Assembly: GCF_030384885.1 (NCBI RefSeq)
Contig: NZ_CP128613.1
Reading direction: 5' to 3' (one strand)
Origin: Escherichia coli
Lineage (GTDB): Bacteria > Pseudomonadota > Gammaproteobacteria > Enterobacterales > Enterobacteriaceae
DNA length: 64,000 nucleotides
In this document: positions 1 through 44,251 of the stretch, one piece after another
Layout of the letters: every line of letters begins with the position of its first letter
Numbering within the stretch: the first letter of the stretch is position 1
Notes under the pieces: generated by a model
Database searches by the model: none
What the model was told of the DNA's origin: nothing
Seen by the model: the letters and a program-made list of their open reading frames with translations, nothing else
Made by a program: the position numbers and the translations under genes

Positions 1-1979
1 ATATCATCCAGAACAGCGGTGCCGCTCTCCAGACGAGCACGGCTAACGGTATTGAAATCAGCGGTACTCACCAGTACGGCACCTTTTCCATTGCCGGAAA
101 TTTAGCGACCAATGCGTTGCTGGAAAATGGCGGTAATTTATTGGTATTAGCAGGTACCGAAGCTCGCGATTCCACGGTTGGCAACGGTGGGGCAATGCAA
201 AACCTGGGTCAGGACTTCGCCACAAAGGTTAATTCCGGTGGGCAATATACCCTTGGTCGGTCAAAAGATGAGTTTCAGGCTCTGGCCCGGGCAGAAGATC
301 TACAGGTCGCTGGCGGGACGGCAATCGTCTACGCAGGTACGCTGGCGGATGCATCGGTCAGTGGCGCGACAGGAAGCCTGTCGTTAATGACGCCACGGGA
401 TAATGTTACGCCAGTTAAACTTGAAGGGGTGGTCCGGATTACCGATAGCGCGACATTAACTATCGGAAATGGCGTCGATACGACGCTTGCCGACCTGACG
501 GCTGCCAGCCGGGGCAGTGTCTGGCTTAACAGCAATAATTCCTGTGCAGGCACCAGCAACTGCGAATATAGAGTAAACAGTTTGCTCCTCAACGACGGTG
601 ATGTTTATTTATCAGCACAAACAGCAGCGCCTGCCACAACTAACGGTATCTACAATACGCTGACCACCAGTGAACTTTCCGGCAGCGGTAATTTCTACCT
701 GCATACCAACGTTGCAGGCTCCCGGGGCGATCAACTGGTCGTCAACAACAACGCCACTGGCAATTTTAAAATCTTTGTTCAGGATACCGGCGTCAGCCCT
801 CAGTCTGACGACGCGATGACGCTGGTGAAAACAGGGGGAGGGGATGCTTCGTTTACGCTGGGTAATACCGGCGGTTTCGTTGATCTTGGGACCTATGAGT
901 ATGTCCTGAAAAGCGACGGCAACAGCAACTGGAACCTGACCAATGATGTCAAACCCAACCCGGATCCCAACCCAAATCCGAAACCGGATCCAAAACCAGA
1001 CCCAAAACCGGATCCGAAACCAGACCCGACTCCCGATCCAACGCCGACACCCGTCCCGGAGAAACGCATCACGCCTTCTACGGCAGCCGTACTCAATATG
1101 GCAGCAACATTACCGTTGGTCTTTGATGCTGAGCTAAACAGTATTCGCGAGCGGTTGAACATAATGAAAGCGAGTCCACACAACAATAATGTCTGGGGGA
1201 CGACGTATAACACCCGTAATAATGTCACCACCGATGCGGGTGCCGGGTTTGAGCAGACGCTGACCGGAATGACGGTGGGGATCGATAGCCGTAATGATAT
1301 TCCTGAGGGGATTGCGACGCTGGGCGCTTTTATGGGTTATTCCCATTCACATATCGGTTTTGATCGTGGAGGACATGGCAGTGTGGGCAGTTATTCTCTG
1401 GGGGGCTATGTCAGCTGGGAACATGAAAGTGGTTTCTATCTGGACGGTATCGTGAAGCTGAACCGCTTTGAAAGTAACGTAGCCGGTAAAATGAGCAGCG
1501 GTGGAGCCGCCAACGGCAGTTATCGCAGCAACGGGCTGGGTGGTCATCTTGAAACCGGGATGCGATTTACCGATGGTAACTGGAACCTGACGCCGTATGC
1601 ATCGTTAACGGGGTTCACCGCTGATAACCCCGAATATCATTTATCCAATGGTATGGAATCGAAATCAGTCGATACCCGCAGTATATATCGTGAACTGGGC
1701 GCAACGCTGAGTTACAACATGCGTCTGGGGAACGGCATGGAAGTTGAGCCGTGGCTGAAGGCGGCTGTGCGCAAAGAATTTGTCGATGATAACCGGGTGA
1801 AAGTGAATAATGACGGTAATTTTGTCAATGATTTGTCGGGCAGACGTGGAATATACCAGGCAGGTATTAAAGCCTCATTCAGCAGTTCGTTAAGCGGGCA
1901 TCTCGGGGTAGGGTATAGCAATGGTGCTGGTTTGGAATCCCCGTGGAACGCGGTGGCTGGTGTGAACTGGTCGTTCTGA
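1..1979 (+). CDS. AIDA-I/Ag43-type autotransporter adhesin, C-terminal part (5' end lies outside the window)
   Basis: Frame is open from position 3 with no upstream stop; Gly/Thr/Asn-rich passenger repeats, a Pro-rich linker (PNPNPKPDPKPDPKPDPTPDP), and a C-terminal beta-barrel domain ending in NWSF (aromatic terminal residue typical of autotransporters). Confidence 0.8.
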   Translation, partial: IIQNSGAALQTSTANGIEISGTHQYGTFSIAGNLATNALLENGGNLLVLAGTEARDSTVGNGGAMQNLGQDFATKVNSGGQYTLGRSKDEFQALARAEDLQVAGGTAIVYAGTLADASVSGATGSLSLMTPRDNVTPVKLEGVVRITDSATLTIGNGVDTTLADLTAASRGSVWLNSNNSCAGTSNCEYRVNSLLLNDGDVYLSAQTAAPATTNGIYNTLTTSELSGSGNFYLHTNVAGSRGDQLVVNNNATGNFKIFVQDTGVSPQSDDAMTLVKTGGGDASFTLGNTGGFVDLGTYEYVLKSDGNSNWNLTNDVKPNPDPNPNPKPDPKPDPKPDPKPDPTPDPTPTPVPEKRITPSTAAVLNMAATLPLVFDAELNSIRERLNIMKASPHNNNVWGTTYNTRNNVTTDAGAGFEQTLTGMTVGIDSRNDIPEGIATLGAFMGYSHSHIGFDRGGHGSVGSYSLGGYVSWEHESGFYLDGIVKLNRFESNVAGKMSSGGAANGSYRSNGLGGHLETGMRFTDGNWNLTPYASLTGFTADNPEYHLSNGMESKSVDTRSIYRELGATLSYNMRLGNGMEVEPWLKAAVRKEFVDDNRVKVNNDGNFVNDLSGRRGIYQAGIKASFSSSLSGHLGVGYSNGAGLESPWNAVAGVNWSF

Positions 1980-2139: not shown

Positions 2140-2183
2140 TGGTGGGCTGGCGGGAGTTGAACCCGCGTCCGAAATTCCTACAT
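2140..2183. repeat. Direct repeat of the ssrA 3' end (att site of the ssrA-integrated island)
   Basis: tggtgggctggcgggagttgaacccgcgtccgaaattcctacat matches the terminal 44 nt of ssrA at 16498-16541 with one mismatch. Confidence 0.85.
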
Positions 2184-2310
2184 ACTAATAATATATCTTT
2201 AAAATCAAAATATTCTATTATTTATCAATGTATTATGTTTATGTGGTGTTAAGGGGTTTATATGGGTTTTAGTTCTCTGCCGCCAAAATGCCGCCAAAAA
2301 AATTGAATGG

Positions 2311-2336
2311 TAAAACGCCAGTTCGTTGAACTGGCG
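2311..2336 (-). terminator. Rho-independent terminator of the dcd-like/thyX-like operon
   Basis: Perfect 9-bp stem cgccagttc/gaactggcg with 3-nt loop, followed on the minus strand by a T run; lies just 3' of the thyX-like stop. Confidence 0.6.
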
Positions 2337-2346
2337 AGATCTTGTC

Positions 2347-3114
2347 TTATTGTTTTATTATCTTAACGTGCGCCGTTCCTCCATTGACTTTTTCGAAATC
2401 TTGGAACAAGGCAGGGGCATCTTGAGTTACAATATCGTAAAGTTTTTCTGAAACTGTTCTCATTTCATAGTCACCCTGTATTGCTCCTCTCATTTCGAAG
2501 AAGTGTCGAATTGCGCGAGCATTTGCTGTGACGATTATTTTTGTCTCGGTTGCATTAGGCAATATAGAGCGAGAAGCGCTTCTTAAGGCCCGCATTTTTT
2601 CTTTTTTGTTCTCATACGATTGGTTTTCACGGATTTTTTTCAAGGATTGCTTATAAAAATCCAGACTACTTTCAATATGTTGGCACCATGACTTAAACAA
2701 TTCTGGGTCATTTTTTACTTCTATAGGGGCTACGAATTCAGCATCGGATTCATCATGATACTGTTGGGATAACTGGCTATATGAAAAACCAGCTCTATGC
2801 CGAACTAGCTGGTGTGTAAATGCACGAGATACCCCAGTAATTAAAAAGGTCCAGTTCAAATGTTCTAAGACACTTTCATGCCCTTGAATAATTAAATTGT
2901 TGATATATTGACTTGTAGTCCGTGGAGACTGCTTATCCTCTCCAAAAGACATATAACATAGCCTGCCAGCGGCCTCTACCAGAAGCTCAGCTTCGGTCGC
3001 CTGCCCTTTGCGAACCCATTGCAATGATGATGTGTTTAAAAAATCATCAAAAACATTACTTTCAAATGAAGGGTGTGATATGCATTTTACTGATAAATCA
3101 GAGATTTTTATCAT
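2347..3114 (-). CDS. ThyX-like flavin-dependent thymidylate synthase homolog (divergent)
   Basis: 255 aa. Contains EHLNWTF...HQLVRHRAGFSYSQLSQQY, matching the ThyX signature (RHR followed by a conserved Ser) as recalled from Thermotoga ThyX, plus an N-terminal AAGRLCYMSF block. It has a one-residue insertion after RHR and Gln where the SxRY Arg is expected. Start codon lies 2 nt after the upstream gene's stop; SD gggag. Confidence 0.7.
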   Translation of the reverse strand: MIKISDLSVKCISHPSFESNVFDDFLNTSSLQWVRKGQATEAELLVEAAGRLCYMSFGEDKQSPRTTSQYINNLIIQGHESVLEHLNWTFLITGVSRAFTHQLVRHRAGFSYSQLSQQYHDESDAEFVAPIEVKNDPELFKSWCQHIESSLDFYKQSLKKIRENQSYENKKEKMRALRSASRSILPNATETKIIVTANARAIRHFFEMRGAIQGDYEMRTVSEKLYDIVTQDAPALFQDFEKVNGGTAHVKIIKQ

Positions 3115-3116
3115 TT

Positions 3117-3902
3117 TTACTCCCGTATAGCTTTTGGGGTGCTTACTTTAGCATCAACCTTTGGTTCGTTTGATTTAGCATTTTTTAGTAATTCAACGGT
3201 GCTTTTTAGGCTATTTATTTCATTTTGTTGAACTTTTATTGTTAATTCAAGATCTTTTGTACTACTGACATTACTGGATACTATTTGAAATAAGAAAGGA
3301 ATTGCTAGGGTTATCAACGTTAGCATTAAGGCTGCTATCGCAATTATAAAGCCAGTTTTTTTCGCAATGATTTTATTGATTTCTTTCGGAAGTCGTTTAT
3401 CAAGTCCTGCAAAATCCTTTCCCATTCTAGAAAGTTGATCATCATCCAATTTATTTACGATTTTTCCTTGGTAACCTTTAGTCGGTATTATTGTTTTAAA
3501 TAATAACATTCGGGCTACTGCTGAATTTTGTGTCAATGAGAATGGTTCTTTTGACATATTTACAAGATATATTGAAATTATGCCATTATATCCAGGGTCA
3601 ATATGCCCTGGATTCGTCATGATAATTCCATTTTTTGATAGTGTGTTTCTTGGAAATATTACACCAGCTAAATTTTTTGCAAGTTGGAATTTTTCATTTA
3701 ACTCTAATATTACAGTTTCCCCTGGCATCAGGATATGGTTGTTACGTGTTTTTTTATTGTCTTGACAGTCTGGTATATGTATTGTTTTTACAGAGAGATC
3801 AATGCTTGCAGATTGAACTTTAAATGTTCCATTTAATACCGTTAATGGATCAAAAATGTTGCCTCGCTGAATTTCATCATTGATTTCTATTTCAGACAGC
3901 AT
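3117..3902 (-). CDS. dCTP deaminase/dUTPase-fold protein with C-terminal transmembrane helix and coiled-coil tail
   Basis: 261 aa. N-terminal ~140 aa carry Dcd-family motifs (SIDLSV; LMPGETVILE; GHIDPGYNGIISIYLVN; LTQNSAVARMLLF), comparable to the E. coli Dcd IDPGW-G region. The C-terminal ~110 aa contain a 22-residue hydrophobic segment (GFIIAIAALMLTLITLAIPFLF) followed by a heptad-like polar stretch. Confidence 0.7.
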   Translation of the reverse strand: MLSEIEINDEIQRGNIFDPLTVLNGTFKVQSASIDLSVKTIHIPDCQDNKKTRNNHILMPGETVILELNEKFQLAKNLAGVIFPRNTLSKNGIIMTNPGHIDPGYNGIISIYLVNMSKEPFSLTQNSAVARMLLFKTIIPTKGYQGKIVNKLDDDQLSRMGKDFAGLDKRLPKEINKIIAKKTGFIIAIAALMLTLITLAIPFLFQIVSSNVSSTKDLELTIKVQQNEINSLKSTVELLKNAKSNEPKVDAKVSTPKAIRE

Positions 3903-3928
3903 ATCAAAATCCTATATTTGTAAAGTTA

Positions 3929-4942
3929 TTATAAATTAGCCAGAGGGTTTTTTATTACTGCATCTTCAAGATGCTCTGGGGAAAAATGTGCATAAATCAT
4001 AGTCATTTTTATATCAGAGTGGCCTAAAATATCTCGTAAAACCAAAATATTACCACCATTCATCATAAAATGGCTGGCGAATGTATGGCGCAGAACGTGA
4101 GTGCATTGGCCCTCTGGTAACTCAATGTCAGCTCGCTTTACTGCTCGTTCAAAGGCTTTTCTGCAAGGAGTGAATAACTTCCCTCTGTTCTTAGGGAGTT
4201 CGTCATACAGATCCTGAGATATCGGCACGGTACGGTTTTTCTTGCCCTTAGTCTTGGTATAGGTGATCCGGTATTTCGATAACTGATGGCCCTGCAGATT
4301 TTCGGCTTCACTCCAGCGCGCGCCGGTGGCCAGGCATATTTTTGTAATTAAAAGTAGACTGGGGCTTTGAGAATCAGCACAGGCATCCAGCAGACGTTTA
4401 ATTTCTTCCGGGGTCAGGAACGACAGTTCACCCTCAGCAATTTTAAATGTTGGCAGCCCGGCAAGCGGATTGGGGGCTGACCAGTGGCCCAACTTTTTCA
4501 GTGTGCCAAAAACAGATGATAGGTTGCGCTGTTCAAGGTTTACAGTGCGGGGCTTAACGGGCGACATAAGCGTGCCCTCTTCATTTCGCACTTCACCTTT
4601 TAGCCGCGCTTCTCGGTATTTAGTAAAATCACCGGCTGTCAGCTCTGAGGCGATGGGATCGCCTAGACCATTACAGATAATTCTAAGTTTCGCCATGAGG
4701 CGCTTGGGGTCTGCGAGTGTTTGACCATACAGGGAATACCACTGCTCAATTAATTCTGATAGGTGTCGCCGATCTTCCTTTTCCCCCAGCCATGGCTTTT
4801 TGTTCACTTCTTCCATTGTGAAGCTTTCAAAAGCAATGGCTTCGCCTTTCGTAGCAAATTGCTTACGCACGCGCTTGCCATTGCGTCCATGGGGATAGCA
4901 CTCGCACAACCATTTACCGTTTGGCTGTTTTCTGACAGTCAT
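3929..4942 (-). CDS. int: Phage integrase, tyrosine recombinase (P2/186-type)
   Basis: 337 aa. Catalytic residues in conserved context: ATGARWSE (Arg), HVLRHTF (His-x-x-Arg), MIYAHF (Tyr). Directly downstream of the cI-like gene as in the coliphage 186 lysogeny operon. Confidence 0.85.
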   Translation of the reverse strand: MTVRKQPNGKWLCECYPHGRNGKRVRKQFATKGEAIAFESFTMEEVNKKPWLGEKEDRRHLSELIEQWYSLYGQTLADPKRLMAKLRIICNGLGDPIASELTAGDFTKYREARLKGEVRNEEGTLMSPVKPRTVNLEQRNLSSVFGTLKKLGHWSAPNPLAGLPTFKIAEGELSFLTPEEIKRLLDACADSQSPSLLLITKICLATGARWSEAENLQGHQLSKYRITYTKTKGKKNRTVPISQDLYDELPKNRGKLFTPCRKAFERAVKRADIELPEGQCTHVLRHTFASHFMMNGGNILVLRDILGHSDIKMTMIYAHFSPEHLEDAVIKNPLANL

Positions 4943-4944
4943 GT

Positions 4945-5577
4945 TTAGATACTCTTTATTACTTTGACTGCACGCCCAATAACTTCCACATCATCAGTAG
5001 AGCACTCGAAAGACGCTTCATCTTGATTTACTACAATCTTATTGCCGGGAATCCGCATGATTTTTGCAACAATAATCATTCCATCAATATTGATAAGCCA
5101 GAATCCATTGCTGACCTGTTTAATTGATTTATCGATGAGATAACAATTAGTAGGGGTTTCTAAGAACATCAATTCTTCATAATCTGCAGGTAATATGCTG
5201 TGGTCTAGGAAAATCTCTTCATCAATACTGAGTTGTCCATTCTCCAGGGTTCCTTTAGGAATAGCTGGAGTTATGAGTTTGGATAACGGTTTAATTGCTT
5301 GTTTGTTCTCATTATGAGAACTTTTCTCAGGCTCAGCTCCTCCTTTCATGCTTCCCTGTCCTGTAGCTAACCAAAGCAACGAAACACCGGTTTCTAGTGC
5401 GCACTGAATTATCCAGTCAGCAGGAAAGCTGTCACGTAACACTCTGTTTGCCATAGTGCTTTTTGAGACATTCAGGTGCTCGCTTAATGCCTGCTTAGTT
5501 GTGAATCCATAAGCCTCAAGCAGCCTTTCAATAGCTGCCTTACCTCCCGTATCGGAACCCATTCTGATGTTTAACAT
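4945..5577 (-). CDS. cI: Phage CI-type repressor (186 cI-like)
   Basis: N-terminal HTH region (LEAYGF...CALETGVSLLWLATGQG) resembles the coliphage 186 CI N-terminal domain; divergent from the apl-like gene. Confidence 0.65.
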   Translation of the reverse strand: MLNIRMGSDTGGKAAIERLLEAYGFTTKQALSEHLNVSKSTMANRVLRDSFPADWIIQCALETGVSLLWLATGQGSMKGGAEPEKSSHNENKQAIKPLSKLITPAIPKGTLENGQLSIDEEIFLDHSILPADYEELMFLETPTNCYLIDKSIKQVSNGFWLINIDGMIIVAKIMRIPGNKIVVNQDEASFECSTDDVEVIGRAVKVIKSI

Positions 5578-5698
5578 TGGTGATCTCCATTTGACAATCT
5601 TGAATCAAGATCGTAATGTCTTCATGTCTCTTGATGTGAGAGTTTAAGAGACGGGCTAAAACGAACTAACACGCACACAAAGTAAGAGATACTGCACT

Positions 5699-5941
5699 AT
5701 GAGTACTGATATTTCAATTCGTGTACCAAAAGAGATGGCTACGCCTGCAGAGTTCGCAGAGTGGGAGGGTATTTCCCGCGGCTCTGTTTACCAAAAAATT
5801 CACCATGGTCAACTTGCTAAGTACATGGTCAAGAAAGAAAAAAACAAAGGCCGCGTAAGCCTGCGTTATCTGATGTACAAAACCGATCAGGTCCGTGAAT
5901 CCCTCGGTCATTCCAACTTCCGCGTCATTGTTGGTAAGTAA
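5699..5941 (+). CDS. Apl/Cox-like small DNA-binding protein (excisionase/early repressor)
   Basis: 80-aa basic protein, first gene of the rightward early operon divergent from cI, by synteny with 186 apl / P2 cox. Confidence 0.5.
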   Translation: MSTDISIRVPKEMATPAEFAEWEGISRGSVYQKIHHGQLAKYMVKKEKNKGRVSLRYLMYKTDQVRESLGHSNFRVIVGK

Positions 5942-5973
5942 GTTCAATTATGGGAACTTTCTAAGGGGGCACC

Positions 5974-6483
5974 ATGTTTGATTACAAGATTTCCAAACAT
6001 CCGCATTTCGATGAAGCCTGTAGGGCTTTTGCACTGCGCCACAACCTGGTGCAACTGGCAGAACGTGCAGGCATGAATGTGCAGATTCTGCGGAACAAGC
6101 TGAACCCAGCTCAACCTCATTTATTAACTGCACCAGAAATCTGGTTGCTTACCGATCTGACTGAAGATTCAACGCTGGTAGATGGTTTTCTGGCTCAGAT
6201 TCACTGCCTGCCATGTGTACCGATTAATGAGGTGGCAAAAGAGAAACTGCCACATTACGTCATGAGTGCAACCGCAGAGATCGGGCGTGTCGCGGCAGGT
6301 GCGGTTTCTGGCGATGTAAAAACCAGTGCAGGCCGTCGTGATGCGATCAGCAGCATTAACTCTGTTACACGACTGATGGCGCTGGCTGCTGTTTCATTGC
6401 AGGCCCGTTTACAGGCTAATCCTGCGATGGCGAGTGCGGTTGATACCGTGACTGGCCTCGGTGCTTCATTCGGTTTGCTGTGA
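5974..6483 (+). CDS. cII: CII-like lysogeny establishment regulator (186-type)
   Basis: 169 aa, positioned after the apl-like gene; size and position match 186 CII as recalled. Confidence 0.5.
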
Positions 6484-6490
6484 GGTGCTT

Positions 6491-6787
6491 ATGCTGATGA
6501 AAGAACCATCATTTGCATCGCTCCTGGTAAAACAAAGTCCGGCAATGCACTACGGTCACGGCTGGATCATGGGTGAGGATGGTAAACGCTGGCATCCGTA
6601 CCGTTCACAAGATGAATTGCTGTCTGAATTGACCACGAGGAAACGGAGAAAGTCCAAATGTATGCGGCAGAAAATAAAGTGGTTTATCACTTTCGTTACA
6701 GAGGGGAGAATTATTCAGTACCTGAAGATGATTTGCTCTGTTGCTATCCGTCGTTGTCGGGCGATGGTAGCTACTTTTTCACGCTAA
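6491..6787 (+). CDS. Hypothetical prophage early protein
   Basis: ORF with SD gaggtg 4 nt upstream of ATG at 6491; overlaps the next ORF out of frame, so one of the two may be spurious. Confidence 0.3.
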   Translation: MLMKEPSFASLLVKQSPAMHYGHGWIMGEDGKRWHPYRSQDELLSELTTRKRRKSKCMRQKIKWFITFVTEGRIIQYLKMICSVAIRRCRAMVATFSR

Positions 6788-6882
6788 AGGATGGAACCTT
6801 TATACGTGGTGAAAAAGTACAAGAAGTGATGCGTATAAAGACATCACCTCTTGAACGTTATCGGCGAAATATTTATCGGTAA
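6658..6882 (+). CDS. Hypothetical prophage early protein
   Basis: 74-aa ORF with SD ggag upstream. Confidence 0.35.
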   Translation: MYAAENKVVYHFRYRGENYSVPEDDLLCCYPSLSGDGSYFFTLKDGTFIRGEKVQEVMRIKTSPLERYRRNIYR

Positions 6883-7121
6883 CGATCTATCAGTGTCTGT
6901 ATCAGATGAGTGAATTCTTGTTGTTTAACCGAACCTAAAGGAAGTTTGTTTAATTCTTCGCGGAGGAGCTCAAAAAATGCTGATTGATTTGCTGAGTCAG
7001 TTCGAAATAAGGAGTGGATCAGACCTGAAACAAGAATTCGTTGAACAGCAACCTCATCGCGAAGACTGGAGATCTCGTTTTCAAGTTGCTCTATACGCTC
7101 TCTTTCAACCGGGTTCAACAT
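6873..7121 (-). CDS. Hypothetical small coiled-coil protein, antisense to the early operon
   Basis: 82-aa ORF with heptad-like ERIEQLENEISSLRDEVAVQR; its orientation is opposite to the surrounding early genes. Confidence 0.3.
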   Translation of the reverse strand: MLNPVERERIEQLENEISSLRDEVAVQRILVSGLIHSLFRTDSANQSAFFELLREELNKLPLGSVKQQEFTHLIQTLIDRYR

Positions 7122-7202
7122 TGATGATTCCTTCTAGCTATCAATATGTTGGTAATGGATCATATCAAAAATTTTTTAGTAGATGTGTTGTGGGATGCAT
7201 AA

Positions 7203-7544
7203 ATGGCTATTGAAGGCACTGCGGCGACTGTTCCATTAAGCCCCGGTGAACGCCTGAATGGACTTAATCACATTGCGGAGTTAAGGGCGAAAGTTTTTGG
7301 CCTGAATATTGAGTCAGAGCTTGAGCGGTTTATTAAAGATATGCGTGATTCACGGGATATTAATAGCGAACAAAATAAACGGGCACTGGCTGCCATATTC
7401 TTTATGGCAAAAATTCCAGCTGAACGTCATAGCATCAGCATTAATGAGCTGACCACTGACGAAAAGCGGGAGTTGATTAAAGCAATGAATCATTTTCGTG
7501 CAGTGGTGAGCTTATTTCCCAGACGGCTAACCATGCCGAATTAA
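7203..7544 (+). CDS. Hypothetical prophage early protein
   Basis: 113-aa ORF in the early operon. Confidence 0.4.
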   Translation: MAIEGTAATVPLSPGERLNGLNHIAELRAKVFGLNIESELERFIKDMRDSRDINSEQNKRALAAIFFMAKIPAERHSISINELTTDEKRELIKAMNHFRAVVSLFPRRLTMPN

Positions 7545-7611
7545 CCAACTAATGAAATTAATGGCGTAAACCCGCCGGGCATCCCTTTATCTAAATTCAG
7601 GAGAATTGATT

Positions 7612-7845
7612 ATGCGTAATATTGAAACCCTCTCGACCAAAACCGGACCGGATGACGCAGGGCTTAATATTTTACTGACAGAGGCTCGTCTGGAAGAACG
7701 CCGGGCAAGGGCTGAAGCAATGGCAGCTCGCCTTGATAGCCTGGCGTGTCATATCACATCCCGCCAGCTAACCCACGTCGAAGCGGCAGAACTGCTTCGT
7801 GTGACTGCTGAAGCAATCCAGAACGAAGCGCAGGAGATCCACTGA
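7612..7845 (+). CDS. Hypothetical prophage early protein
   Basis: ATG at 7612 preceded by SD aggaga; 77 aa. Confidence 0.4.
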   Translation: MRNIETLSTKTGPDDAGLNILLTEARLEERRARAEAMAARLDSLACHITSRQLTHVEAAELLRVTAEAIQNEAQEIH

Positions 7846-8072
7846 TGGCTGATGCAATGGATCTCGTACAGCAGCGCGTTGAAGAAGAACGCCAACGCCA
7901 TATCCGTGCTGCCCGTGCCAAAACGCCGGGCGTGTCCCGCGTGCTTTGCATTGAGTGTGAAGCGCCAATTCCGCCAGCACGCCGCCGTGCCATTCCGGGT
8001 GTGCAGCTTTGCATTACCTGTCAGGAAATCGCAGAGCTGAAAGGCAAACATTACAACGGAGGTGCTGTATGA
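7845..8072 (+). CDS. TraR/DksA-family C4 zinc-finger protein (phage)
   Basis: CIECEAPIPPARRRAIPGVQLCITC: two CxxC pairs with the spacing typical of TraR/DksA zinc fingers, common in P2/186-like early regions. Confidence 0.65.
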   Translation: MADAMDLVQQRVEEERQRHIRAARAKTPGVSRVLCIECEAPIPPARRRAIPGVQLCITCQEIAELKGKHYNGGAV

Positions 8073-8926
8073 GCACCATCCTGAAATGGGCGGGAAATAA
8101 AACTGCCATAATGTCCGAACTGAAAAAACATCTTCCTGCTGGCCCGCGACTGGTTGAACCTTTCGCGGGTTCCTGTGCTGTGATGATGGAGACGGATTAT
8201 CCCAGCTATCTGGTTGCGGATATTAATCCTGATTTAATCAACCTCTATAAAAAGGTTGCCGCTGATTGTGAATCGTTTATATCTCGCGCCAGAGTTTTAT
8301 TTGAGATCGCAAACAGGGAGGTGGCTTATTACAACATAAGGCAGGAGTTTAATTACTCAACTGAAATTACTGATTTCATGAAAGCGGTATATTTCCTGTA
8401 TCTCAATCGTCACGGTTACCGTGGTTTATGTCGCTATAACAAGAGCGGGCATTTCAACATTCCCTACGGTAATTATAAAAATCCGTATTTCCCTGAAAAA
8501 GAAATTCGCGCATTTGCAGAAAAGGCCCAGCGAGCAACGTTTATCTGCGCCAGCTTTGATGAAACGCTGGCGATGTTGAAGGCGGGGGATGTGGTGTATT
8601 GCGATCCGCCGTATGACGGTACGTTTTCCGGCTATCACACTGACGGCTTCACTGAAGATGACCAGTATCACCTGGCATCTGTTCTTGAACATCGGTCATC
8701 AGAAGGACATCCGGTCATTGTTTCTAACAGTGACACATCCCTGATCCGTTCGCTGTATCGCAATTTTACTCACCACTACATCAAGGCAAAACGCAGCATC
8801 GGTGTGGCAGCTGGCGAGGGTAAATCAGCAACAGAAATCATTGCTGTTTCCGGGCCGCGCTGCTGGGTGGGATTTGATTATTCGCGTGGCGTGGATAGTT
8901 CTGCCGTGTACGGAGTACGTGCATGA
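8069..8926 (+). CDS. dam: DNA adenine methyltransferase (Dam-like, phage-encoded)
   Basis: N-terminal [11 protein letters not shown]...EPFAGS (AdoMet-binding motif) and the catalytic DPPY motif (VYCDPPYDG); start overlaps the stop of the upstream ORF. Confidence 0.8.
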
Positions 8927-11337
8927 GTCATGCCGATATGAACAACTGCTGCGGCTTTAACGAAGCTGCCGCATCGTTCTCATGGAACAGCCCGAAAAAG
9001 GCCATTAACCCTTATCTGGACCCGGCGGAAGTTGCGCCGGTTTCTGCGCTTTCAAACCTGATCACTCTGTACGCTACTGATAACGAGCAGGAACAACTGC
9101 GCCGCGAGGCACTGAGTGATCAGGTCTGGGAGCGTTATTTCTTTAATGAATCCCGTGATCCTGTCCAACGCGAAATGGAGCAGGATAAGCTCATTAGCCG
9201 GGCAAAGATGGCGCATGAGCAGCAGCGTTTTAATCCAGACATGGTCATTCTGACTGACGTCAACGCCCAGCCTTCCCATATCAGCAAGCCGCTGATGCAA
9301 CGTATTGAATATTTCAGCAGCCTGGGCAGGCCAAAGGCTTATTCCCGCTATTTGCGTGAGACGATTAAGCCATGTCTGGAACGACTGGAGCATGTACGCG
9401 ACAGCCAGCTATCTGCATCTTTTCGTTTTATGGCAAGCCATGAAGGGCTGGACGGTCTGCTGATCCTGCCTGAAATGAGTCAGGATCAGGTGAAACGCCT
9501 GTCTACCCTTGTCGCTGCGCATATGAGCATGTGTCTTGATGCCGCTTGTGGTGATTTGTACGCCTCCGATGATGTTAAGCCAGAAGAAATCCGCAAGACA
9601 TGGGAAAAGGTGGCTGCAGAAACCCTGCGACTGGATGTCATACCGCCTGCGTTTGAGCAACTCCGCCGGAAAAGAAACCGCCGCAAACCTGTGCCTTATG
9701 AACTCATTCCGGGTTCGCTGGCGCGTATGCTGTGCGCCGACTGGTGGTATCGGAAATTATGGAAGATACGTTGCGAATGGCGGGAAGAGCAGTTGCGTGC
9801 TGTCTGCCTGGTCAGCAAAAAAGCATCTCCCTATGTCAGCTATGAAGCCGTGATGCATAAACGTGAGCAGCGCCGTAAGTCGCTGGAGTTTTTCCGTTCT
9901 CATGAACTGGTGAACGAAGACGGCGACACGCTGAACATGGAGGATGTGGTAAACACCAGCAGCAGCAACCCGGCGCATCGCCGCAACGAGATGATGGCCT
10001 GTGTTAAAGGCCTAGAGCTTATCGCGGAAATGCGTGGTGACTGCGCCGTTTTCTACACCATCACCTGTCCGTCACGTTTCCATTCCACGCTAAATAACGG
10101 CAGGCCAAACCCGACCTGGACCAACGCGACAGTAAGACAAAGCAGCGATTATCTGGTCGGCATGTTTGCTGCATTTCGTAAGGCTATGCACAAAGCCGGG
10201 TTGCGCTGGTATGGCGTGCGGGTGGCTGAGCCGCATCATGACGGCACAGTTCACTGGCACCTGTTGTGTTTCATGCGCAAAAAAGACCGCCGCGCCATTA
10301 CTGCATTGTTGCGTAAGTTTGCCATCCGTGAAGACCGCGAGGAGCTGGGCAATAACACGGGGCCACGCTTTAAGTCTGAGCTGATAAACCCGCGCAAAGG
10401 AACGCCGACAAGCTACATTGCGAAATATATCAGTAAGAATATTGACGGGCGTGGTCTGGCTGGCGAGATCAGTAAGGAAACGGGTAAATCCCTGCGTGAT
10501 AACGCTGAATACGTTAATGCCTGGGCGTCTCTGCATCGTGTTCAGCAATTCCGCTTCTTTGGCATTCCGGGGCGTCAGGCTTACCGTGAACTGCGATTGC
10601 TGGCTGGTCAGGCGGCAAGGCAACAGGGTGACAAAAAAGCAGGTGCGCCGGTACTGGATAACCCGCGCCTTGATGCCATCCTGGCTGCTGCTGATGCTGG
10701 TTGTTTTGCCTCCTACATCATGAAGCAGGGCGGCGTACTGGTTCCCCGCAAATATCACCTCATCAGAACCGCTTATGAAATCAACGAAGAGCCGACCGCC
10801 TATGGCGATCACGGTATTCGTATTTATGGCATCTGGTCACCCATTGCAGAGGGCAAGATCTGCACTCATGCAGTGAAGTGGAAAATGGTTCGTAAGGCCG
10901 TTGACGTTCAGGAGGCGGCAGCCGACCAGGGCGCTTGCGCCCCTTGGACTCGTGGCAATAACTGTCCCCTTGCTGAAAATTTGAACCAACAGGAGAAAGA
11001 TAAATCAGCTGATGGGGACACCAGAACGGACATTACCCGCATGGATGACAAGGAGTTGCACGATTACCTGCACAGTATGAGCAAAAAAGAGCGCCGGGAA
11101 CTGGCTGCAAGGTTACGCCAGGTGAAACCGAAACGGCGTAAAGACTACAAACAGCGAATTACAGACCATCAGCGACAGCAGCTCGTCTATGAACTGAAGT
11201 CCAGGGGATTTGATGGCAGTGAGAAAGAAGTCGATTTGCTCCTTCGCGGTGGCAGTATTCCGTCAGGAGCAGGCCTGCGTATTTTCTATCGGAACCAGCG
11301 TCTGAAGGAAGATGATAAGTGGCGGAACCTGTATTAA
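8923..11337 (+). CDS. Phage replication initiation protein (P2 gpA-like rolling-circle endonuclease)
   Basis: 804 aa. HUH-type motif VHWHLLCF and active-site Tyr block [12 protein letters not shown], as in P2/186 gene A. Confidence 0.8.
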
Positions 11338-11429
11338 TTACGCGGGTTAACAATTCGTGCCCTTAATAATACCAGGCATATCAGGCTGATGAATGTAAAA
11401 AAACGTTTTACATCAGTAAGATTATTATA

Positions 11430-11449
11430 TACTGTAAATATAAACAGTG
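11430..11449 (+). promoter_or_regulatory. LexA (SOS) box upstream of small ORF plus dinI-like gene
   Basis: tactgtaaatataaacagtg: CTGT-N8-ACAG with an AT-rich spacer, ~40 nt upstream of the ATG at 11490. Confidence 0.65.
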
Positions 11450-11489
11450 GTTATCTATACAGTATTGCTTTGGTGTCATAGGAGGAAAG

Positions 11490-11678
11490 ATGCAGGACTA
11501 TTTTTTGGAGTCTTTGAAGCTCCAGCGCATTGATTTTTTTCTTAAGCTTGTAGCGGCTAGTGAGTGTAGTGATGAAGAGAAGGGGCTGGCTCTGCAGTGG
11601 GTTTCTGAACTGACAGATGAACTCATGGCAAAAATCAGAACCCACGAATACAACCGCTCAATGGATGTCATCAGCTGA
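11490..11678 (+). CDS. Hypothetical SOS-regulated small protein (possible Tum-like antirepressor position)
   Basis: 62-aa ORF with SD aggagg, immediately downstream of the LexA box; position analogous to 186 tum, but no recognised sequence similarity. Confidence 0.4.
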   Translation: MQDYFLESLKLQRIDFFLKLVAASECSDEEKGLALQWVSELTDELMAKIRTHEYNRSMDVIS

Positions 11679-11688
11679 GGTGACTTTT

Positions 11689-11922
11689 ATGCGCATTGAA
11701 ATAATGATCGATAAAGAGCAGAAGATTAGCCAGTCTACCCTGGACGCCCTTGAATCCGAGCTTTACCGCAATCTGCGCCCCCTGTATCCCAAAACGGTAA
11801 TCCGTATCCGTAAAGGTAGCTCTAACGGTGTGGAACTGACCGGACTGCAACTGGACGAAGAAAGAAAACAAGTGATGAAAATTATGCAGAAGGTGTGGGA
11901 AGACGACAGCTGGCTGCATTGA
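11689..11922 (+). CDS. DinI-family protein
   Basis: 77 aa, MRIEIMIDK...LDALESEL...KVWEDDSWL parallels E. coli DinI (MRIEVTIAK...IDALAGEL...ETWESADDWF). Confidence 0.7.
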   Translation: MRIEIMIDKEQKISQSTLDALESELYRNLRPLYPKTVIRIRKGSSNGVELTGLQLDEERKQVMKIMQKVWEDDSWLH

Positions 11923-12035
11923 TTTTGTCAATAGACGCTTGTTTTTACTAATCAAAAAGGGTTACATATGAGTGAGAGGCGATGTCAATCAGATATCGCC
12001 TTGTTTTTTGTCAAGAAAAGAATAATAGGCTAAAA

Positions 12036-12713
12036 ATGAAAATTAATAATGTAGCGTTACCAATATCTCTTGCTGTAATCCTAACTGGTTGCGTGCCACA
12101 TGCTTCTAACCGAAATATCACTGCTATTGAAGTGGTGAAGCCTGCTATTGGGCAAAGTGCTACCGCCTACATGGGCGATCCCATTATCACATCTGCTACT
12201 GGATTTAAAACGGACGTACTAGAACTTGGTGCGGCTAATGGTGCATTGTCTTCTATCGCTGCTGGTACATATTGCAGTGAGGGGAATGGAATTTACCGCA
12301 ATTATCATAACCCTCAAGCTGTTGCGTTAAAAAATCTCTATGGGCAAATCGGTAACTATGTTGATTATGTTAGTTACGATGCTGCAAAAAATGAGATATC
12401 ACCGCCAAATGGTACTTCTTATACTGCATCAGAAATTTCTATCAAACGTGTTCCTGATGGGCTGTGTCGAGTTAGTAACTCATTGGTTAAGACTATCGAA
12501 TACAATGGAAATGCAGGCGGTGTAATGAAGTTCACCTATCGTGAATTTGCAAACGATATGGCTCGTGCAGCATTTACAACAGATTTTTCTGTAGATTCTA
12601 AGGGAAGTGACGTTATCGCTTACAAAGGTGCCAAGTTCAAAGTGAACAAGGCTGATAACTCGTCTATTTCTTATACAATTATTTCTGGCTTTGACAAGGC
12701 TGTCACGTTCTAG
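12036..12713 (+). CDS. Prophage-encoded lipoprotein (moron)
   Basis: Signal peptide MKINNVALPISLAVILTGC with lipobox LTGC; the remainder is Ser/Thr/Asn-rich with no recognised domain. Confidence 0.6.
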   Translation: MKINNVALPISLAVILTGCVPHASNRNITAIEVVKPAIGQSATAYMGDPIITSATGFKTDVLELGAANGALSSIAAGTYCSEGNGIYRNYHNPQAVALKNLYGQIGNYVDYVSYDAAKNEISPPNGTSYTASEISIKRVPDGLCRVSNSLVKTIEYNGNAGGVMKFTYREFANDMARAAFTTDFSVDSKGSDVIAYKGAKFKVNKADNSSISYTIISGFDKAVTF

Positions 12714-12805
12714 GTTTCACGCTTACTGAGTATGTTACGATTTTGCACATTCTGCATAAACGCGCATGTCTATGCTGCATGAGATCGCATGATCGTTTGA
12801 GGATC

Positions 12806-12833
12806 TTTTGTGTTAAGGCCCGCCAGTTCTGGC
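12806..12833 (+). terminator. Rho-independent terminator after lipoprotein gene
   Basis: GC-rich stem gcccgcc/ggcgggc followed by tttt. Confidence 0.6.
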
Positions 12834-13038
12834 GGGCTTTTGCGTAGATCATGCAGGTGCATGAAAACCACTACATAAAGCGGGCAGGCGTGGCGGGGAT
12901 ACGAGCGCGCGTTATGACAAATAGATGATTAGCCTGATTTATTCACAGCTGTATAAATGATCACCTTGTAATTAGGTAAGTAATGTCTTCTATTATCATT
13001 GATTTGATAGGATTAATCTGTTTTTTGAGGATTAGAGG

Positions 13039-15375
13039 ATGATTGAAGAGGTAGTTATTGACAAAGTAGGCTCATATAATGGCCCTACTCAGCTTTTACA
13101 TGGGCTTTCTAAATTTAACTATTTATATGGAGCTAATGGTGCAGGTAAAACAACTATAAGTAAAATTATTAATGACCCTGAACAATATCCAACATGTCCG
13201 ATTAAATGGAAAAATAATATATCTTTAATAAGCTACGTATATAATAAAGATTTTGTTGAAAGAAATTTTAGTCAAGATAAAATTAAAGGTGTATTTACCC
13301 TTGGTAGCGATCTTAAGGAGGATGAAGAGAAATTAATATCTCTTGAAGAAGAAAAAAATAAGCTAATAGAATCTATTATAGCAAAGGAAAAGCTAATAGA
13401 TGGTGGTGATAATATATTAGGCGTTGTTAAACAAATCGAAGACCATGAAAAATCTTTTAAAGATTCATGTTGGAAGCAAAAAGTAAAACATGATAATGTG
13501 TTCTCAAAGGCTTTTGAGGGATTAAGGAATAGTAGTGAAAAATTTAAAGCTAGAGTGTTGGCTGAGTATGAAAATAACACATCAGAAGTTTGCTCAATAG
13601 CAGAGCTAATTGAGAAAGCAAAAATTGTTTTTTCTACTGAATTGACATCACATGTATCAATTACAATTCCATCCTTCAATGGGATAGATGATATTTTGAG
13701 TAGGGAGATTTGGAGTGAGCGTATTCTAGGGAAAAAAGACGTTAGTGTTTCAGACTTAATTACAATGCTCAATAACAGTGATTGGGTTAAGGAAGGTTTA
13801 ACATATTTCAGTAAATCTAATCCCAAGTGCCCATTCTGCCAGCAGGATGTAAATGATAATATATTTGATAATCTATCATCATATTTTGATAAAACATATG
13901 AGTTAAAAAAAAGAGAAATCGATGCATTGGTTTTACAATATGAACATCAACTTAATAATATCTTGCAGGCGATAGATGATATAAGGGCGATTAAATCTCC
14001 ATTCATAAATTATGAAGTGTTTGAGGATAAGGCTAAGATAGTATTATCTGAATTAAACAAGAATTTTGAATTGGCAAAAAATAAACGCAATTTTTTAAGT
14101 GAATCAGTTCATTTTAGTGACTTAAGTGAAGTTGTTGATGATTTTATTTCTTTTTTGAATGATTCAAATCTATTGATAGATAATAATAACAAAATACACA
14201 GTAATAGAAAGGTAGAGGCTAGTAATCTTTCTAATCAGATATGGGCATATATCGTAAAGGTGGAGTTAAAGTCTGAAATAACTTCTTACCGTAGCGAATC
14301 TGATAAATTTAATAGGAAGTTACAAGGGCTTAAATCTGGGTTAGAGGAAGACAAAAAGAAGTTAATGTTAAATGCTTCGGCTATTGAGGCAATTGAGTCT
14401 AATAAAACCAGTACTCTTCCAACTATTACAAAAATTAACAAGATTCTGGATTCTTATGGCTTCAAAAATTTTTACTTAAAACCCTCCGAAGATAAAAAGC
14501 ATTATATGATAGTGAGAGATAGTGGAGATAATGCTCGTACAACCCTTAGCGAGGGAGAAAAGACATTTATCACTTTTTTGTATTTTTATAGCCTTGTTAG
14601 AGGGAGTGATAATGCATCAGGTGTTTTAGATGATCGTGTTGTAGTATTTGATGATCCAATTTCAAGTTTAGATAGTGATATTCTGTTTATTGTAAGTTCG
14701 TTGATTAAAGATTTAATGGAGGATGTTCGTAAGGATGAAGGAAATATTAAGCAAATTATATTCCTTACACATAATATTTATTTTCATAAAGAGTTGACTT
14801 TTAATACTAAAAGATCCGGTAATCAAGCAATGAAAGAGGAGACTTTTTGGATTGTAAGGAAAAAAGGGAAGGTCTCATATCTTGAAAAGTGCGAATCAAA
14901 CCCAATAAAAACGTCTTATGATTTGCTCTGGTGCGAATTGAGAAGAACAGATATTAATAATAATACTATACAAAATACAATGCGAAGGATTTTGGAGAAT
15001 TACTTTAAGATATTAGGTGGGATGGATATTAGGAAGCTTGAATGTCATTTTTATGGTGATGAAAAAATCATATTTAAATCTTTAGTGTCATGGATTAATG
15101 ATGGTTCTCATTTTGCAGGTGATGATCTTTATATGAATTTAGATACGGAGTCTGTGCAAAAATATTTAATTGTTTTTCAGAAGATATTTGAGTGTAGTGA
15201 GCATACTGCCCATTACAAAATGATGATGGGTGAGTTTTATAGACCGTTAAATGAGTCACTTCATCTACAAGATGAGTTTGATATTGATGATAGTGCGAAT
15301 GATGAGTATGCTTCGTCAAAAATTGAGATAGAAGATGGAATAAACACATCTCTACATAGTAATACATATTTGTAA
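13039..15375 (+). CDS. RloC/PrrC-like ATPase with CxxC zinc hook (putative anticodon nuclease / abortive-infection protein)
   Basis: 778 aa, very AT-rich. N-terminal Walker A GANGAGKTT; long coiled-coil region containing CPFC; D-loop/Walker B-like VVVFDDPISSLDSD; C-terminal region with RRILENYF and downstream His residues, reminiscent of the PrrC/RloC Arg-Glu-His nuclease motif as recalled. Confidence 0.55.
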   Translation: MIEEVVIDKVGSYNGPTQLLHGLSKFNYLYGANGAGKTTISKIINDPEQYPTCPIKWKNNISLISYVYNKDFVERNFSQDKIKGVFTLGSDLKEDEEKLISLEEEKNKLIESIIAKEKLIDGGDNILGVVKQIEDHEKSFKDSCWKQKVKHDNVFSKAFEGLRNSSEKFKARVLAEYENNTSEVCSIAELIEKAKIVFSTELTSHVSITIPSFNGIDDILSREIWSERILGKKDVSVSDLITMLNNSDWVKEGLTYFSKSNPKCPFCQQDVNDNIFDNLSSYFDKTYELKKREIDALVLQYEHQLNNILQAIDDIRAIKSPFINYEVFEDKAKIVLSELNKNFELAKNKRNFLSESVHFSDLSEVVDDFISFLNDSNLLIDNNNKIHSNRKVEASNLSNQIWAYIVKVELKSEITSYRSESDKFNRKLQGLKSGLEEDKKKLMLNASAIEAIESNKTSTLPTITKINKILDSYGFKNFYLKPSEDKKHYMIVRDSGDNARTTLSEGEKTFITFLYFYSLVRGSDNASGVLDDRVVVFDDPISSLDSDILFIVSSLIKDLMEDVRKDEGNIKQIIFLTHNIYFHKELTFNTKRSGNQAMKEETFWIVRKKGKVSYLEKCESNPIKTSYDLLWCELRRTDINNNTIQNTMRRILENYFKILGGMDIRKLECHFYGDEKIIFKSLVSWINDGSHFAGDDLYMNLDTESVQKYLIVFQKIFECSEHTAHYKMMMGEFYRPLNESLHLQDEFDIDDSANDEYASSKIEIEDGINTSLHSNTYL

Positions 15376-15382
15376 TTTTATT

Positions 15383-15413
15383 GCAATTGCCAGTAGCAAC
15401 AATACGGTACTGG
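15383..15413. terminator. Bidirectional hairpin between convergent ATPase and portal-fragment genes
   Basis: 9-bp perfect inverted repeat ttgccagta...tactggcaa. Confidence 0.4.
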
Positions 15414-15424
15414 CAACTAATATT

Positions 15425-15964
15425 TTAGTTAAGCTCATATGGAGAAAATTCTATAAGTTTCTCCCCGAGCCATGCGTTTATTTCCATAAATCGTTTTTGC
15501 AAAGGAATTAATTCATTTATCACAAAAACCTTACTAGCCTTCTCCACATCCCCAAACCCCCCAACATTATTAGGCATTATCCCCATCATTTGCGGCGGCA
15601 CACGGTGTGCCGCCATCATGTCGTCCCGGCTCACGTTCTTGATATTCAGAAACTCATCCTTCGCCGCGACTTCTGACAACGGGATAATCTGAAGCCCGTC
15701 CTTTTTGCCGTTAGGAGAGTACATAAACAGGTTGCGGAAGTTGCCTGGCCCTTTGGCACTTTTCATTGCGTTGCGGAGGTTGTTCACATCTTCTTGGTTC
15801 TGTGCGGCATCGGTCATGTACATGATGAAACCTGCATGGCTGCCGTTGATGTAATACTTACGGCGGAACAGTGTGGCGGACTCGTTGAGCAGGGCTGACG
15901 GGATGGCAGAGAGATAACCTGGCAGGCCGTAGATCTCCTGGTTGATGTCCGGTTCCGCCCTTAA
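15425..15964 (-). pseudogene. Phage portal-like (P2 gpQ-like) gene fragment, 5'-truncated
   Basis: The reading frame stays open upstream of the first Met to ~15964 and then hits a stop with no start. Orientation and position (leftward, after the replication/cargo region) match P2 Q; the family assignment is from synteny and is tentative. Confidence 0.4.
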
Positions 15965-16153
15965 TCATCTCAACCATGCGTTACAGCTCGATCCCCGCTG
16001 TGGCGTGAAAAAAGACAAACAGCAGCTGGAGCGCAGACTGCGCAATGACAGCCGCTGACAGAACGTGCCCCCGCGCACGGGCGGCACGGGGTGGCGAAAG
16101 GCACAGCCACATCAAAACCCCGTCCACCGCCCTTTATTTCAGGAGAAAGCAGC

Positions 16154-16354: not shown

Positions 16355-16497
16355 ACAAAGTGAAGTTCTTCCATGTGAAACCTCTTTGCATGATTTCAAG
16401 ATGGCGACAGGCAAGATGGACGCAAAAGTCTGTCGCCATTTTGCCGCCACTACCAAAGAAAAAGGGGCTACGCTTTCACGTAACCCCTTGATTTATT

Positions 16498-35447: not shown

Positions 35448-35550
35448 GTTTGTTTCCTTAAGTGACTTTAGTACAGTACCCGTACTGTTTTCACGCTGTC
35501 AACAAAAAACGCGCCCGAAGGCGCGTTGGCGATACACTCAATATAAAGGA

Positions 35551-42709: not shown

Positions 42710-44251
<1,542 letters not shown>

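Follow-up and report, generated by a model that had tools for sequence, protein, structure and literature searches.

Bacterial defences that deplete nucleotides, of the dCTP deaminase, dGTPase and AvcID types, target the deoxynucleoside triphosphate (dNTP) pools, reside on mobile elements and in defence islands, and employ cytidine-deaminase folds that require zinc, combined with kinase or NTPase domains, or else a small RNA antitoxin. Phage T4 provides a two-step scheme, in which a pyrophosphatase, the dCTPase/dUTPase gp56, precedes the dCMP hydroxymethylase gp42, which carries out a folate-dependent C5 modification of the deoxynucleoside monophosphate (dNMP). In the DefensePredictor study, the validated Escherichia coli defence DS-3 combines a ThyA-type thymidylate synthase with a dNMP kinase, a 5-hydroxymethyldeoxyuridine kinase and a TIR protein; therefore, thymidylate-synthase-type and nucleotide-modifying enzymes can be defence components. 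Here we analyze a gene pair of 1.55 kb located at positions 2,347 to 3,902 of a stretch of 64,000 nucleotides (the window) of the E. coli contig NZ_CP128613.1 (assembly GCF_030384885.1). It encodes a membrane-anchored protein with the fold of the dCTP deaminase Dcd, whose family is referred to as Dcd-TM, and a member of the thymidylate synthase family ThyX belonging to a clade referred to as ThyX-Q. The pair is a self-contained, horizontally mobile accessory module, most likely an undescribed system of anti-phage defence or of conflict between elements that works on pyrimidine deoxynucleotide metabolism. We rate it as a candidate variant of nucleotide-targeting defence, whose nearest concepts are the nucleotide-depletion defences and the dCTPase-plus-hydroxymethylase logic of phages. 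Its genes and the segments of the first protein are the following:

3902..3117, minus strand: Dcd-like gene, 261 amino acids, first of the pair (open reading frame listing)
3453..3902, minus strand: Dcd-like beta-barrel domain, residues 1-150, predicted cytoplasmic (alignment and AlphaFold2)
3285..3353, minus strand: single predicted transmembrane helix, residues ~184-206 (hydrophobicity; inside predicted helix 154-244)
3120..3284, minus strand: C-terminal tail, residues 207-261, predicted helical or coiled-coil and putatively periplasmic (AlphaFold2), the fastest-diverging part
3114..2347, minus strand: thyX gene, 255 amino acids, second of the pair (open reading frame listing)

The pair shares with the nucleotide-depletion defences its would-be target and its presence on mobile elements and in defence islands, but the proteins are unrelated, and the pair has no deaminase residue, while it does have a ThyX partner and a membrane anchor. 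With gp56 and gp42 it shares the two-step logic; these proteins, however, are non-homologous, serve the modification of phage DNA and bear no membrane anchor. DS-3 was considered and rejected as the identity of the pair, since its thymidylate synthase is of the ThyA type (PF00303) and comes with a TIR effector and kinases, and without a Dcd-fold or transmembrane protein. More generally, PADLOC v2 reported zero families for either protein at E<=1, hence a known defence system, including the dCTP deaminase/dGTPase type and AvcID, was discarded as well. No description of a system of this composition was found in the searchable literature, in line with the earlier note on this DNA, whose author knew of none.

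The Dcd-like membrane protein and its ThyX partner

The Pfam profiles DCD (1.7e-13) and dUTPase (2.1e-12) match residues 52-137 of the Dcd-like protein, and phrog_1663 matches residues 2-241 (4.7e-28). The AlphaFold2 model, obtained with 35 homologs, shows residues 1-150 with a predicted local distance difference test score (pLDDT) >90, followed by a single unbroken helix spanning residues 154-244. According to Foldseek, the nearest structures are the bifunctional dCTP deaminase-dUTPases (DCD-DUT) of B. halodurans and M. tuberculosis, followed by archaeal Dcd-like dUTPases and E. coli Dcd (E = 4e-12 to 1e-8; top PDB matches 4xjc, 2qlp, 2qxx, 1xs1 and 1ogh). A further match in AFDB50, D1JI88, is a protein of 418 amino acids annotated with a guanylate kinase-like domain and displaying a Dcd-like fold, which hints that the pseudo-Dcd domain is fused to nucleotide kinases in other architectures.

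Concerning the residues that define deaminase activity, the protein was aligned with the DCD-DUT of M. tuberculosis and B. halodurans and with E. coli Dcd, whose sequence was checked by positions S111, R115, H121, D128, W131 and E138. It displays the motif T96-N97-P98-G99-H100-I-D102-P-G-Y105, which keeps the sugar-binding Asp and the aromatic residue. The position of the Dcd catalytic Glu138 (E145 in M. jannaschii) is occupied by Tyr112, and the G-R-S-S/R115 motif is replaced by P-R-N-T...K, most relatives having P-P-N-S. The same picture emerges family-wide from 189 sequences, 182 of which carry the core motif: none of the 182 has a Glu at the Glu138 position, which is governed by Thr (125), followed by Cys (26), Tyr (22), Ala (5), Ser (2) and Val (2), while TNPGH precedes the Asp in 171. 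Because the Glu is absent from the whole family, its members are no canonical deaminases and the label "dCTP deaminase" is unsupported. A genuine dCTP deaminase was thus rejected, also considering that the score against the NCBIfam dCTP_deam model (TIGR02274) is 56.2 bits and does not reach the 92.8 cut-off. The earlier note had proposed a Dcd/dUTPase fold; Pfam and Foldseek agree with the fold, and the deaminase role is what has to be given up.

When compared with the DCD-DUT enzymes of M. tuberculosis, B. halodurans and M. jannaschii and with E. coli Dcd, the family thus keeps the fold, the topology of the N-terminal 150 residues and the I-D-P-G-(Y/F/W)-x-G signature, but has Thr, Cys or Tyr for the Glu and P-(R/K/P)-N for GRSS, and adds TNPGH, the transmembrane helix and the extracytoplasmic tail. 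The trimeric dUTPases (Dut), including the archaeal Dcd-like dUTPases (PDB 9ln3 and 8y1w), are also structural neighbours and have the Asp and Tyr of motif 3 in common with the Dcd-like protein, which reads G-H-I-D102-P-G-Y105-N-G, D102 being invariant and the Tyr or Phe nearly so. Lacking deaminase chemistry, the protein would fit a pyrophosphatase-only enzyme of this kind. Nevertheless, it remains under the cut-off of every Dut model: the motif-2 Ser is changed to Asn, Arg, Thr, Ser or Val stands where motif 4 has its Gln, and the glycine-rich motif 5 is absent, a conserved D-F...R segment leading into the transmembrane helix instead. Judged from sequence, the Dcd-like domain would be a diverged pyrophosphatase of pyrimidine dNTPs, or else a pseudo-enzyme that binds nucleotides.

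The membrane anchor announced in the earlier note is borne out by a hydrophobic 19-mer at residues 186-204 with a Kyte-Doolittle value of 2.65, and a transmembrane-like hydrophobic segment follows the domain in 177 of the 189 family members. Lys and Arg are enriched on the N-terminal side of the segment (4 before vs 1 after), so the Dcd-like domain, held at the inner membrane by this one helix, is predicted to be cytoplasmic and the helical tail, of 50-80 residues, extracytoplasmic. The tail shows weak similarity to Rz-like spanin PHROGs, and some homologs are labelled FtsL or Lpp by a source.

The second protein passes the equivalog cut-off of the TIGR02170 thyX model (154.8 bits vs 87.9), matches Pfam Thy1 (PF02511) at 3.2e-48 and scores 147 bits against M. 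tuberculosis ThyX. Its motif is RHR-AGFSYSQL-S-Q-Q-Y, in which the RHR triad as well as the Ser and Tyr corresponding to Ser88 and Tyr91 of T. maritima align. The Arg147 and Arg174 equivalents are also kept, since R-S-x-L-P-N-A-T-E and A-N-A-R-A-x-R-H-F align with the M. tuberculosis and C. glutamicum enzymes. All these residues are common to the housekeeping ThyX of M. tuberculosis, C. glutamicum and T. maritima, from which ThyX-Q differs by an insertion after RHR and by a Gln. This Gln substitutes the Arg of S-x-R-Y (Arg90 in T. maritima, Arg107 in M. tuberculosis) and, like the extra residue, is found in 23/23 partner sequences and in all of the 120 best database matches; the one-residue insertion brings the RHR-to-Ser spacing to x8, compared with the canonical R-H-R-x7-S. 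Arg90 of T. maritima is described as conserved and important for catalysis, lies beside Tyr91, and its change in R90A strongly slows the step triggered by deoxyuridine monophosphate, dUMP (PMC8316439, PMC11940539). From its sequence the window ThyX is therefore best described as a family member by profile score, belonging to a distinct clade with one conserved catalytic-motif residue changed, rather than as the generically divergent ThyX-like protein of the earlier note.

Hosts of the ThyX-Q clade are Serratia, Klebsiella, Yersinia, Pectobacterium, Pseudomonas, Shewanella and Alteromonas. These bacteria normally depend on ThyA, hence ThyX-Q should be considered an accessory and not a housekeeping clade. 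Also at variance with housekeeping ThyX, it is always linked to a Dcd-TM gene in the genomes of Enterobacterales, Pseudomonas, Shewanella and Alteromonas that supply the best database matches.

Partners, distribution and neighbourhoods of the pair

In a library clustered at 50% identity, the Dcd-TM family comprises 11,218 representatives at E<=1e-3, of which 480 remain at E<=1e-30, and almost all of the best 150 matches are near full length. In every complete-context locus obtained by exact-protein look-up, corresponding to Citrobacter, P. aeruginosa, Shewanella, Morganella, Pantoea, Brenneria, Serratia and two metagenomic lineages, ThyX-Q lies directly downstream, often overlapping. The survey of co-conservation for which the earlier note had called was performed as a pattern scan with one genome per species, and yielded 23 loci from Gamma- and Alphaproteobacteria, Acidobacteria, Mycobacterium, Verrucomicrobia and Myxococcota. 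Sixteen of them have ThyX-Q next or close to the Dcd-like gene: in 13 it is the same-strand neighbour, and in three acidobacterial-type loci it lies 1-2 kb off, on the opposite strand. Five loci end at or just past the Dcd-like gene, the downstream DNA being missing, and the remaining two, one Myxococcota locus and one gene fragment, have downstream sequence without ThyX-Q. In the Myxococcota locus (L033, 9995-13402), the neighbours of the Dcd-TM gene are a HAD-family phosphatase, a Vsr mismatch endonuclease and a Dcm cytosine methyltransferase.

Partner variants are also observed. Three acidobacterial loci (L020, 779-4304; L022, 9800-13557; L031, 9995-13748) also encode a MutT-like NUDIX protein that ends in a WGR domain, and insert as well an unannotated protein of ~310 amino acids, which shows no NCBIfam match and only an insignificant match to MazG. 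One high-GC prophage contig (IMG/VR UViG_2585428058_000004; L054, 7865-10508) carries, in place of ThyX, a ThyA-type homolog and a PfkB kinase, in a cluster located among phage structural genes. This ThyA-type protein, which is a non-homologous replacement of the partner enzyme, keeps Cys146, has a 13-residue insertion and shows Asp instead of Asn177. An Asp at ThyA position 177 is linked to dCMP specificity, as in T4 dCMP hydroxymethylase and in N177D mutants of thymidylate synthase. Taken together, the NUDIX and the ThyA/PfkB variants tie Dcd-TM functionally to dNTP/dNMP chemistry at the pyrimidine C5 position.

The pair is rare within the species and scattered beyond it. Only one of 5,426 complete E. 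coli genomes, TUM12355, harbors it, at the same place of a similar defective prophage. This rarity, together with the low GC content of the genes (32-39%) and the scattered contexts, led us to reject vertically inherited housekeeping dcd, dut or thyX genes, an outcome that the earlier note had named as fatal to its proposal. The other such outcome, a pair never conserved together elsewhere, is contradicted by the strong co-conservation described above. Searches of 50,697 phage and 72,556 plasmid records gave no full-length homolog, the matches being confined to the bare dUTPase or Dcd domain at <=35% identity, so generic phage nucleotide-metabolism genes were rejected too. In IMG/VR, eight contigs share the cI-int-DcdTM-ThyX order of the window, with the pair within ~1.8 kb of a contig end in at least five; three of them are 34-36 kb long, apparently the size of a complete P2/186-like phage. 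Relative to the window, their integrase is ~91% identical and ThyX 77-80%, while the Dcd-like protein reaches 50-65% and its tail 29-38%. Such divergence of the Dcd-like protein behind a 91% identical integrase (L048-L052, ~8300-11560) suggests either allele swapping at this place or an accelerated divergence of the membrane protein.

Neighbourhoods in other genera are diverse. In Brenneria, the pair lies in a P4-like satellite, between a Beta_protein/M78 pair and P4 cII; in Pantoea, at the ogr end of a P2-like prophage; in Citrobacter, by transfer genes of an integrative and conjugative element (ICE), or by GmrSD and an AAA_15/21 ATPase; and in P. aeruginosa, between a 1,708-residue helicase and an nSTAND1 protein. 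In distant taxa, the genes found within ~6 kb include viperin, a type II and a methyl-directed restriction endonuclease, a CARF6 protein, a type III methyltransferase with a GajB-like helicase, a PDC-M16A/RecD-like protein and HsdR. As judged by genomic association, this distribution is expected of a mobile defence or conflict module and not of a salvage pathway.

The window locus and its remnant prophage

The pair is placed between the integrase gene int and an attachment (att) repeat derived from ssrA. The relevant surrounding features are:

2146..2183, strand not applicable: distal att core, exact 38-bp direct repeat of the ssrA 3' end, identical to 16505-16542
2312..2336, minus strand: hairpin (2316-2336) plus UUUU, likely intrinsic terminator closing the transcription unit (RNA folding)
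3929..4942, minus strand: int, P2/186-type tyrosine integrase, directly upstream of the pair (open reading frame)
4945..5577, minus strand: cI, CI-type prophage repressor, opening the putative cI-int-DcdTM-thyX unit (open reading frame)
8009-8926, plus strand: Dam-like orphan DNA methyltransferase (PADLOC oMTase, 369 bits), overlapping the gpA start
8923-11337: replication gene gpA
13039-15375, plus strand: 778-residue AAA-type ATPase of the candidate defence family PDC-S06 (PADLOC, 885 bits, full length)
15425-15823: C-terminal fragment of the portal protein, 132 amino acids, the sole late-gene piece of the remnant

Most of what the earlier note had read from this arrangement holds. The coordinates of the two coupled genes are correct, with 2 nt between the TAA stop of the Dcd-like gene and the ATG of thyX. 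Both genes, called AT-rich by eye, have a GC content of 32.2% (Dcd-like) and 38.7% (thyX), while int reaches 46.8%, gpA 52.8% and the window overall 48.9%. The terminator hairpin is present 10 nt past the thyX stop, G+C-rich and 9 bp long (dG -14.1 kcal/mol, z = -2.0), although it falls below the terminator-scan threshold because only four U follow it. The proposed cargo position between att and int recurs in the eight IMG/VR contigs, and a 2026 preprint on P2/P4 defence hotspots describes the P2 int-att interval as a minor hotspot harboring 3% of P2-borne systems. The pair thus occupies what characterizes hotspot cargo of P2-like prophages, a variable interval between core genes and att.

The claim that probably does not hold is that of a separate two-gene operon. 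A consensus scan revealed no sigma-70-like promoter between int and the pair, and an own promoter was rejected on this basis. Given the lack of a promoter-like site after int and the tight packing of the genes, with gaps of 2, 26 and 2 nt along cI, int, the Dcd-like gene and thyX, the pair is probably the distal end of the lysogenic cI-int transcription unit, whose terminator it would share. In the near-identical TUM12355 locus, the int and cI counterparts are annotated as site-specific integrase and phage repressor protein CI, respectively. An RNA partner such as an AvcI-like antitoxin was rejected as well, as the Rfam scan showed just the ssrA-derived att arm, a sub-threshold tmRNA match across 2140-2410.

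The element between the att repeats (2146-16542) is a remnant of ~14.3 kb of a defective P2/186-like prophage integrated at ssrA; the repeat copy at 16505-16542 falls inside the real tmRNA gene ssrA (16498-16860). The remnant keeps the early region and its cargo, including a Cox-like excisionase, CII and a DinI-like gene, while the late genes are deleted save for the portal fragment. The PDC-S06 ATPase lies between the DinI-like gene and the portal remnant, which corresponds to the classical P2 tin/old hotspot, and therefore the remnant has at least two cargo loci. An open reading frame of 134 amino acids without annotation (15970-16374) adjoins ssrA.

Outside the prophage, positions 117-1979 (plus strand) hold the C-terminal part of a large autotransporter-like open reading frame with PNPDP/KPDP repeats and a beta-barrel-like end, as judged by visual inspection of the translation. 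The end of this reading frame falls just beyond the distal att repeat, which suggests that the prophage borders on another island or accessory region at ssrA. The window also contains an rRNA operon (16S, tRNA-Glu, 23S and 5S; 42710-47724), a Phe leader (35323-35448) and the RyfD small RNA (39575-39713), all of which represent ordinary enterobacterial chromosome context unrelated to the pair.

Possible functions of the pair

The earlier note had listed three roles for the pair, namely manipulation of dCTP or dUTP pools upon infection, a pyrimidine-modification pathway, or a salvage module. Of these, the genomic contexts favour defence over salvage. On the basis of genomic association, we consider it somewhat probable that the pair is a defence or conflict module of some mechanism, and the chances that it acts on pyrimidine nucleotides appear evenly balanced. 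Within this frame, a specific pool-draining mechanism can be sketched from the sequences, to which we give limited credence. The Dcd-like subunit, presumably trimeric as the solved relatives of its fold are, would bind a pyrimidine dNTP, such as dUTP, dCTP or an analogue modified by a phage, on the inner side of the membrane, and would probably hydrolyse it to the monophosphate. ThyX-Q would then methylate the resulting dUMP with methylenetetrahydrofolate and NADPH, directing the flux irreversibly into thymidylate. Pyrimidine pools and the one-carbon supply would be skewed or depleted, hurting phage replication or the synthesis of modified bases, and the transmembrane helix, with its fast-evolving periplasmic tail, could plausibly gate or sense envelope events. 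In the prophage of the window, the pair would be expressed in the lysogen together with cI and int.

It should be noted that several observations weigh against a defensive role in general and this mechanism in particular. There is no obvious reason why the conversion of dUMP to dTMP would harm a phage, and simple pool draining leaves the membrane anchor unexplained. The phosphate motifs of the Dcd-like domain are degenerate (PRN or PPN for GRSS or PRS, no motif-4 Gln, no motif 5), hence hydrolysis is uncertain and the domain may perhaps bind nucleotides only; ThyX, in turn, scores above the equivalog cut-off, which leaves room for a purely metabolic role. As for defence itself, the evidence is all genomic association, and several loci are bare two-gene inserts amid core genes with no defence neighbours. 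To this adds the PADLOC result given above, and the pair is missing from the transcription units that the DefensePredictor study assayed.

The alternatives were examined in the light of the same data. A metabolic one, which we regard as quite unlikely, is that a dUTPase-like enzyme and ThyX boost or secure dTMP for the element or its host, either for prophage replication after induction or as a route independent of ThyA and DHFR under folate stress or trimethoprim. The score and conserved residues of ThyX (RHR, Ser, Tyr and the Arg147 and Arg174 equivalents) fit such a supply, as do the PHROGs classification of both proteins as nucleotide metabolism, the presence of archaeal Dcd-like dUTPases (9ln3, 8y1w) among the structural neighbours, and the stable carriage of the pair by a lineage of apparently full-length (34-36 kb) P2/186-like contigs. 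A soluble enzyme, however, needs neither a transmembrane helix nor a periplasmic tail, yet the transmembrane-like segment is present in 177/189 members. The Dut/Dcd phosphate motifs are degenerate, a catalytic ThyX Arg is always Gln, and the 50,697 phage records hold no full-length homolog. The position of the pair is also at odds with this explanation, since it lies in the lysogenic operon and in cargo hotspots and not in the replication module, and recurs in ICEs and defence islands. In another alternative, the pair would work by abortive infection, with a dead Dcd-like nucleotide sensor set on a membrane effector. By analogy with the transmembrane effectors of CBASS and Pycsar, ThyX-Q would make or remove a ligand, for example one derived from a pyrimidine nucleotide specific to the phage, and binding of the ligand would trigger membrane disruption by the transmembrane and coiled-coil segments. 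The loss of the deaminase Glu and the degenerate phosphate motifs, contrasting with a strongly constrained new base-pocket TNPGH, point to sensing, and the obligatory transmembrane helix with its fast-evolving periplasmic tail, together with a translational coupling that suggests a complex, agree with it. Nonetheless we find it decidedly unlikely: each protomer has one transmembrane helix and no recognisable pore-forming or lytic domain, the usual ThyX product dTMP is abundant in uninfected cells and unfit as an alarm signal, and there is no evidence for toxicity.

A further alternative concerns the product. The pair could make a C5-modified pyrimidine, such as 5-methyl-dCMP, 5-hydroxymethyl-dCMP or 5-hydroxymethyl-dUMP, mimicking the dCTPase and dCMP hydroxymethylase steps of phages, and this nucleotide would protect the DNA of the element, or poison or mark invading DNA for modification-dependent restriction. 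Neighbours including a methyl-directed restriction endonuclease, GmrSD and Dcm-Vsr would suit this route, as would the altered catalytic-site Arg of the ThyX-Q clade, the contig whose ThyA-type partner combines Cys146 and an Asn177 to Asp change with a PfkB kinase, and the validated DS-3, which likewise employs phage-type nucleotide-modifying enzymes. What makes it very improbable is that ThyX-Q keeps the uracil-activating Arg174 equivalent, a sign that its substrate is dUMP and its product dTMP, that the two-gene form comes without a kinase or a glycosyl- or other transferase, and that the ThyA-type variant is a single locus. According to a last proposal, also unlikely in our estimate, the pair would represent a new class of immune module with folate/flavin-dependent pyrimidine C5 chemistry at the core of defence. 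In such a module, a deaminase-dead, membrane-tethered Dcd-fold trimer would sense or process a pyrimidine dNTP, while ThyX-Q, or in some relatives the ThyA-type enzyme with its dCMP-type Asp, would make or consume a non-standard nucleotide, for example dUMP or dCMP modified at C5. Defence would then operate either by signalling via the membrane protein or by sabotage of the routes through which phages modify their bases.

Returning to the pair as a mobile module with a possible role in defence, its small size (1.55 kb), its presence in E. coli and the availability of point-mutation targets (D102, H100, Y112, RHR and the Q of SQQY) make it directly testable. A systematic mis-annotation would also be corrected, because proteins of this family cannot be canonical dCTP deaminases. 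Were defence confirmed, the system would be made of enzymes that databases now call ordinary dCTP deaminase and thymidylate synthase; a thymidylate synthase would be shown as a defence component, and a large family of membrane-anchored pseudo-Dcd proteins would gain a function. Considering the scale of the Dcd-like family, with at least 480 clusters at 50% identity from several phyla, a pair that protects against phage would be a widespread and so far unannotated addition to nucleotide-targeting bacterial immunity.

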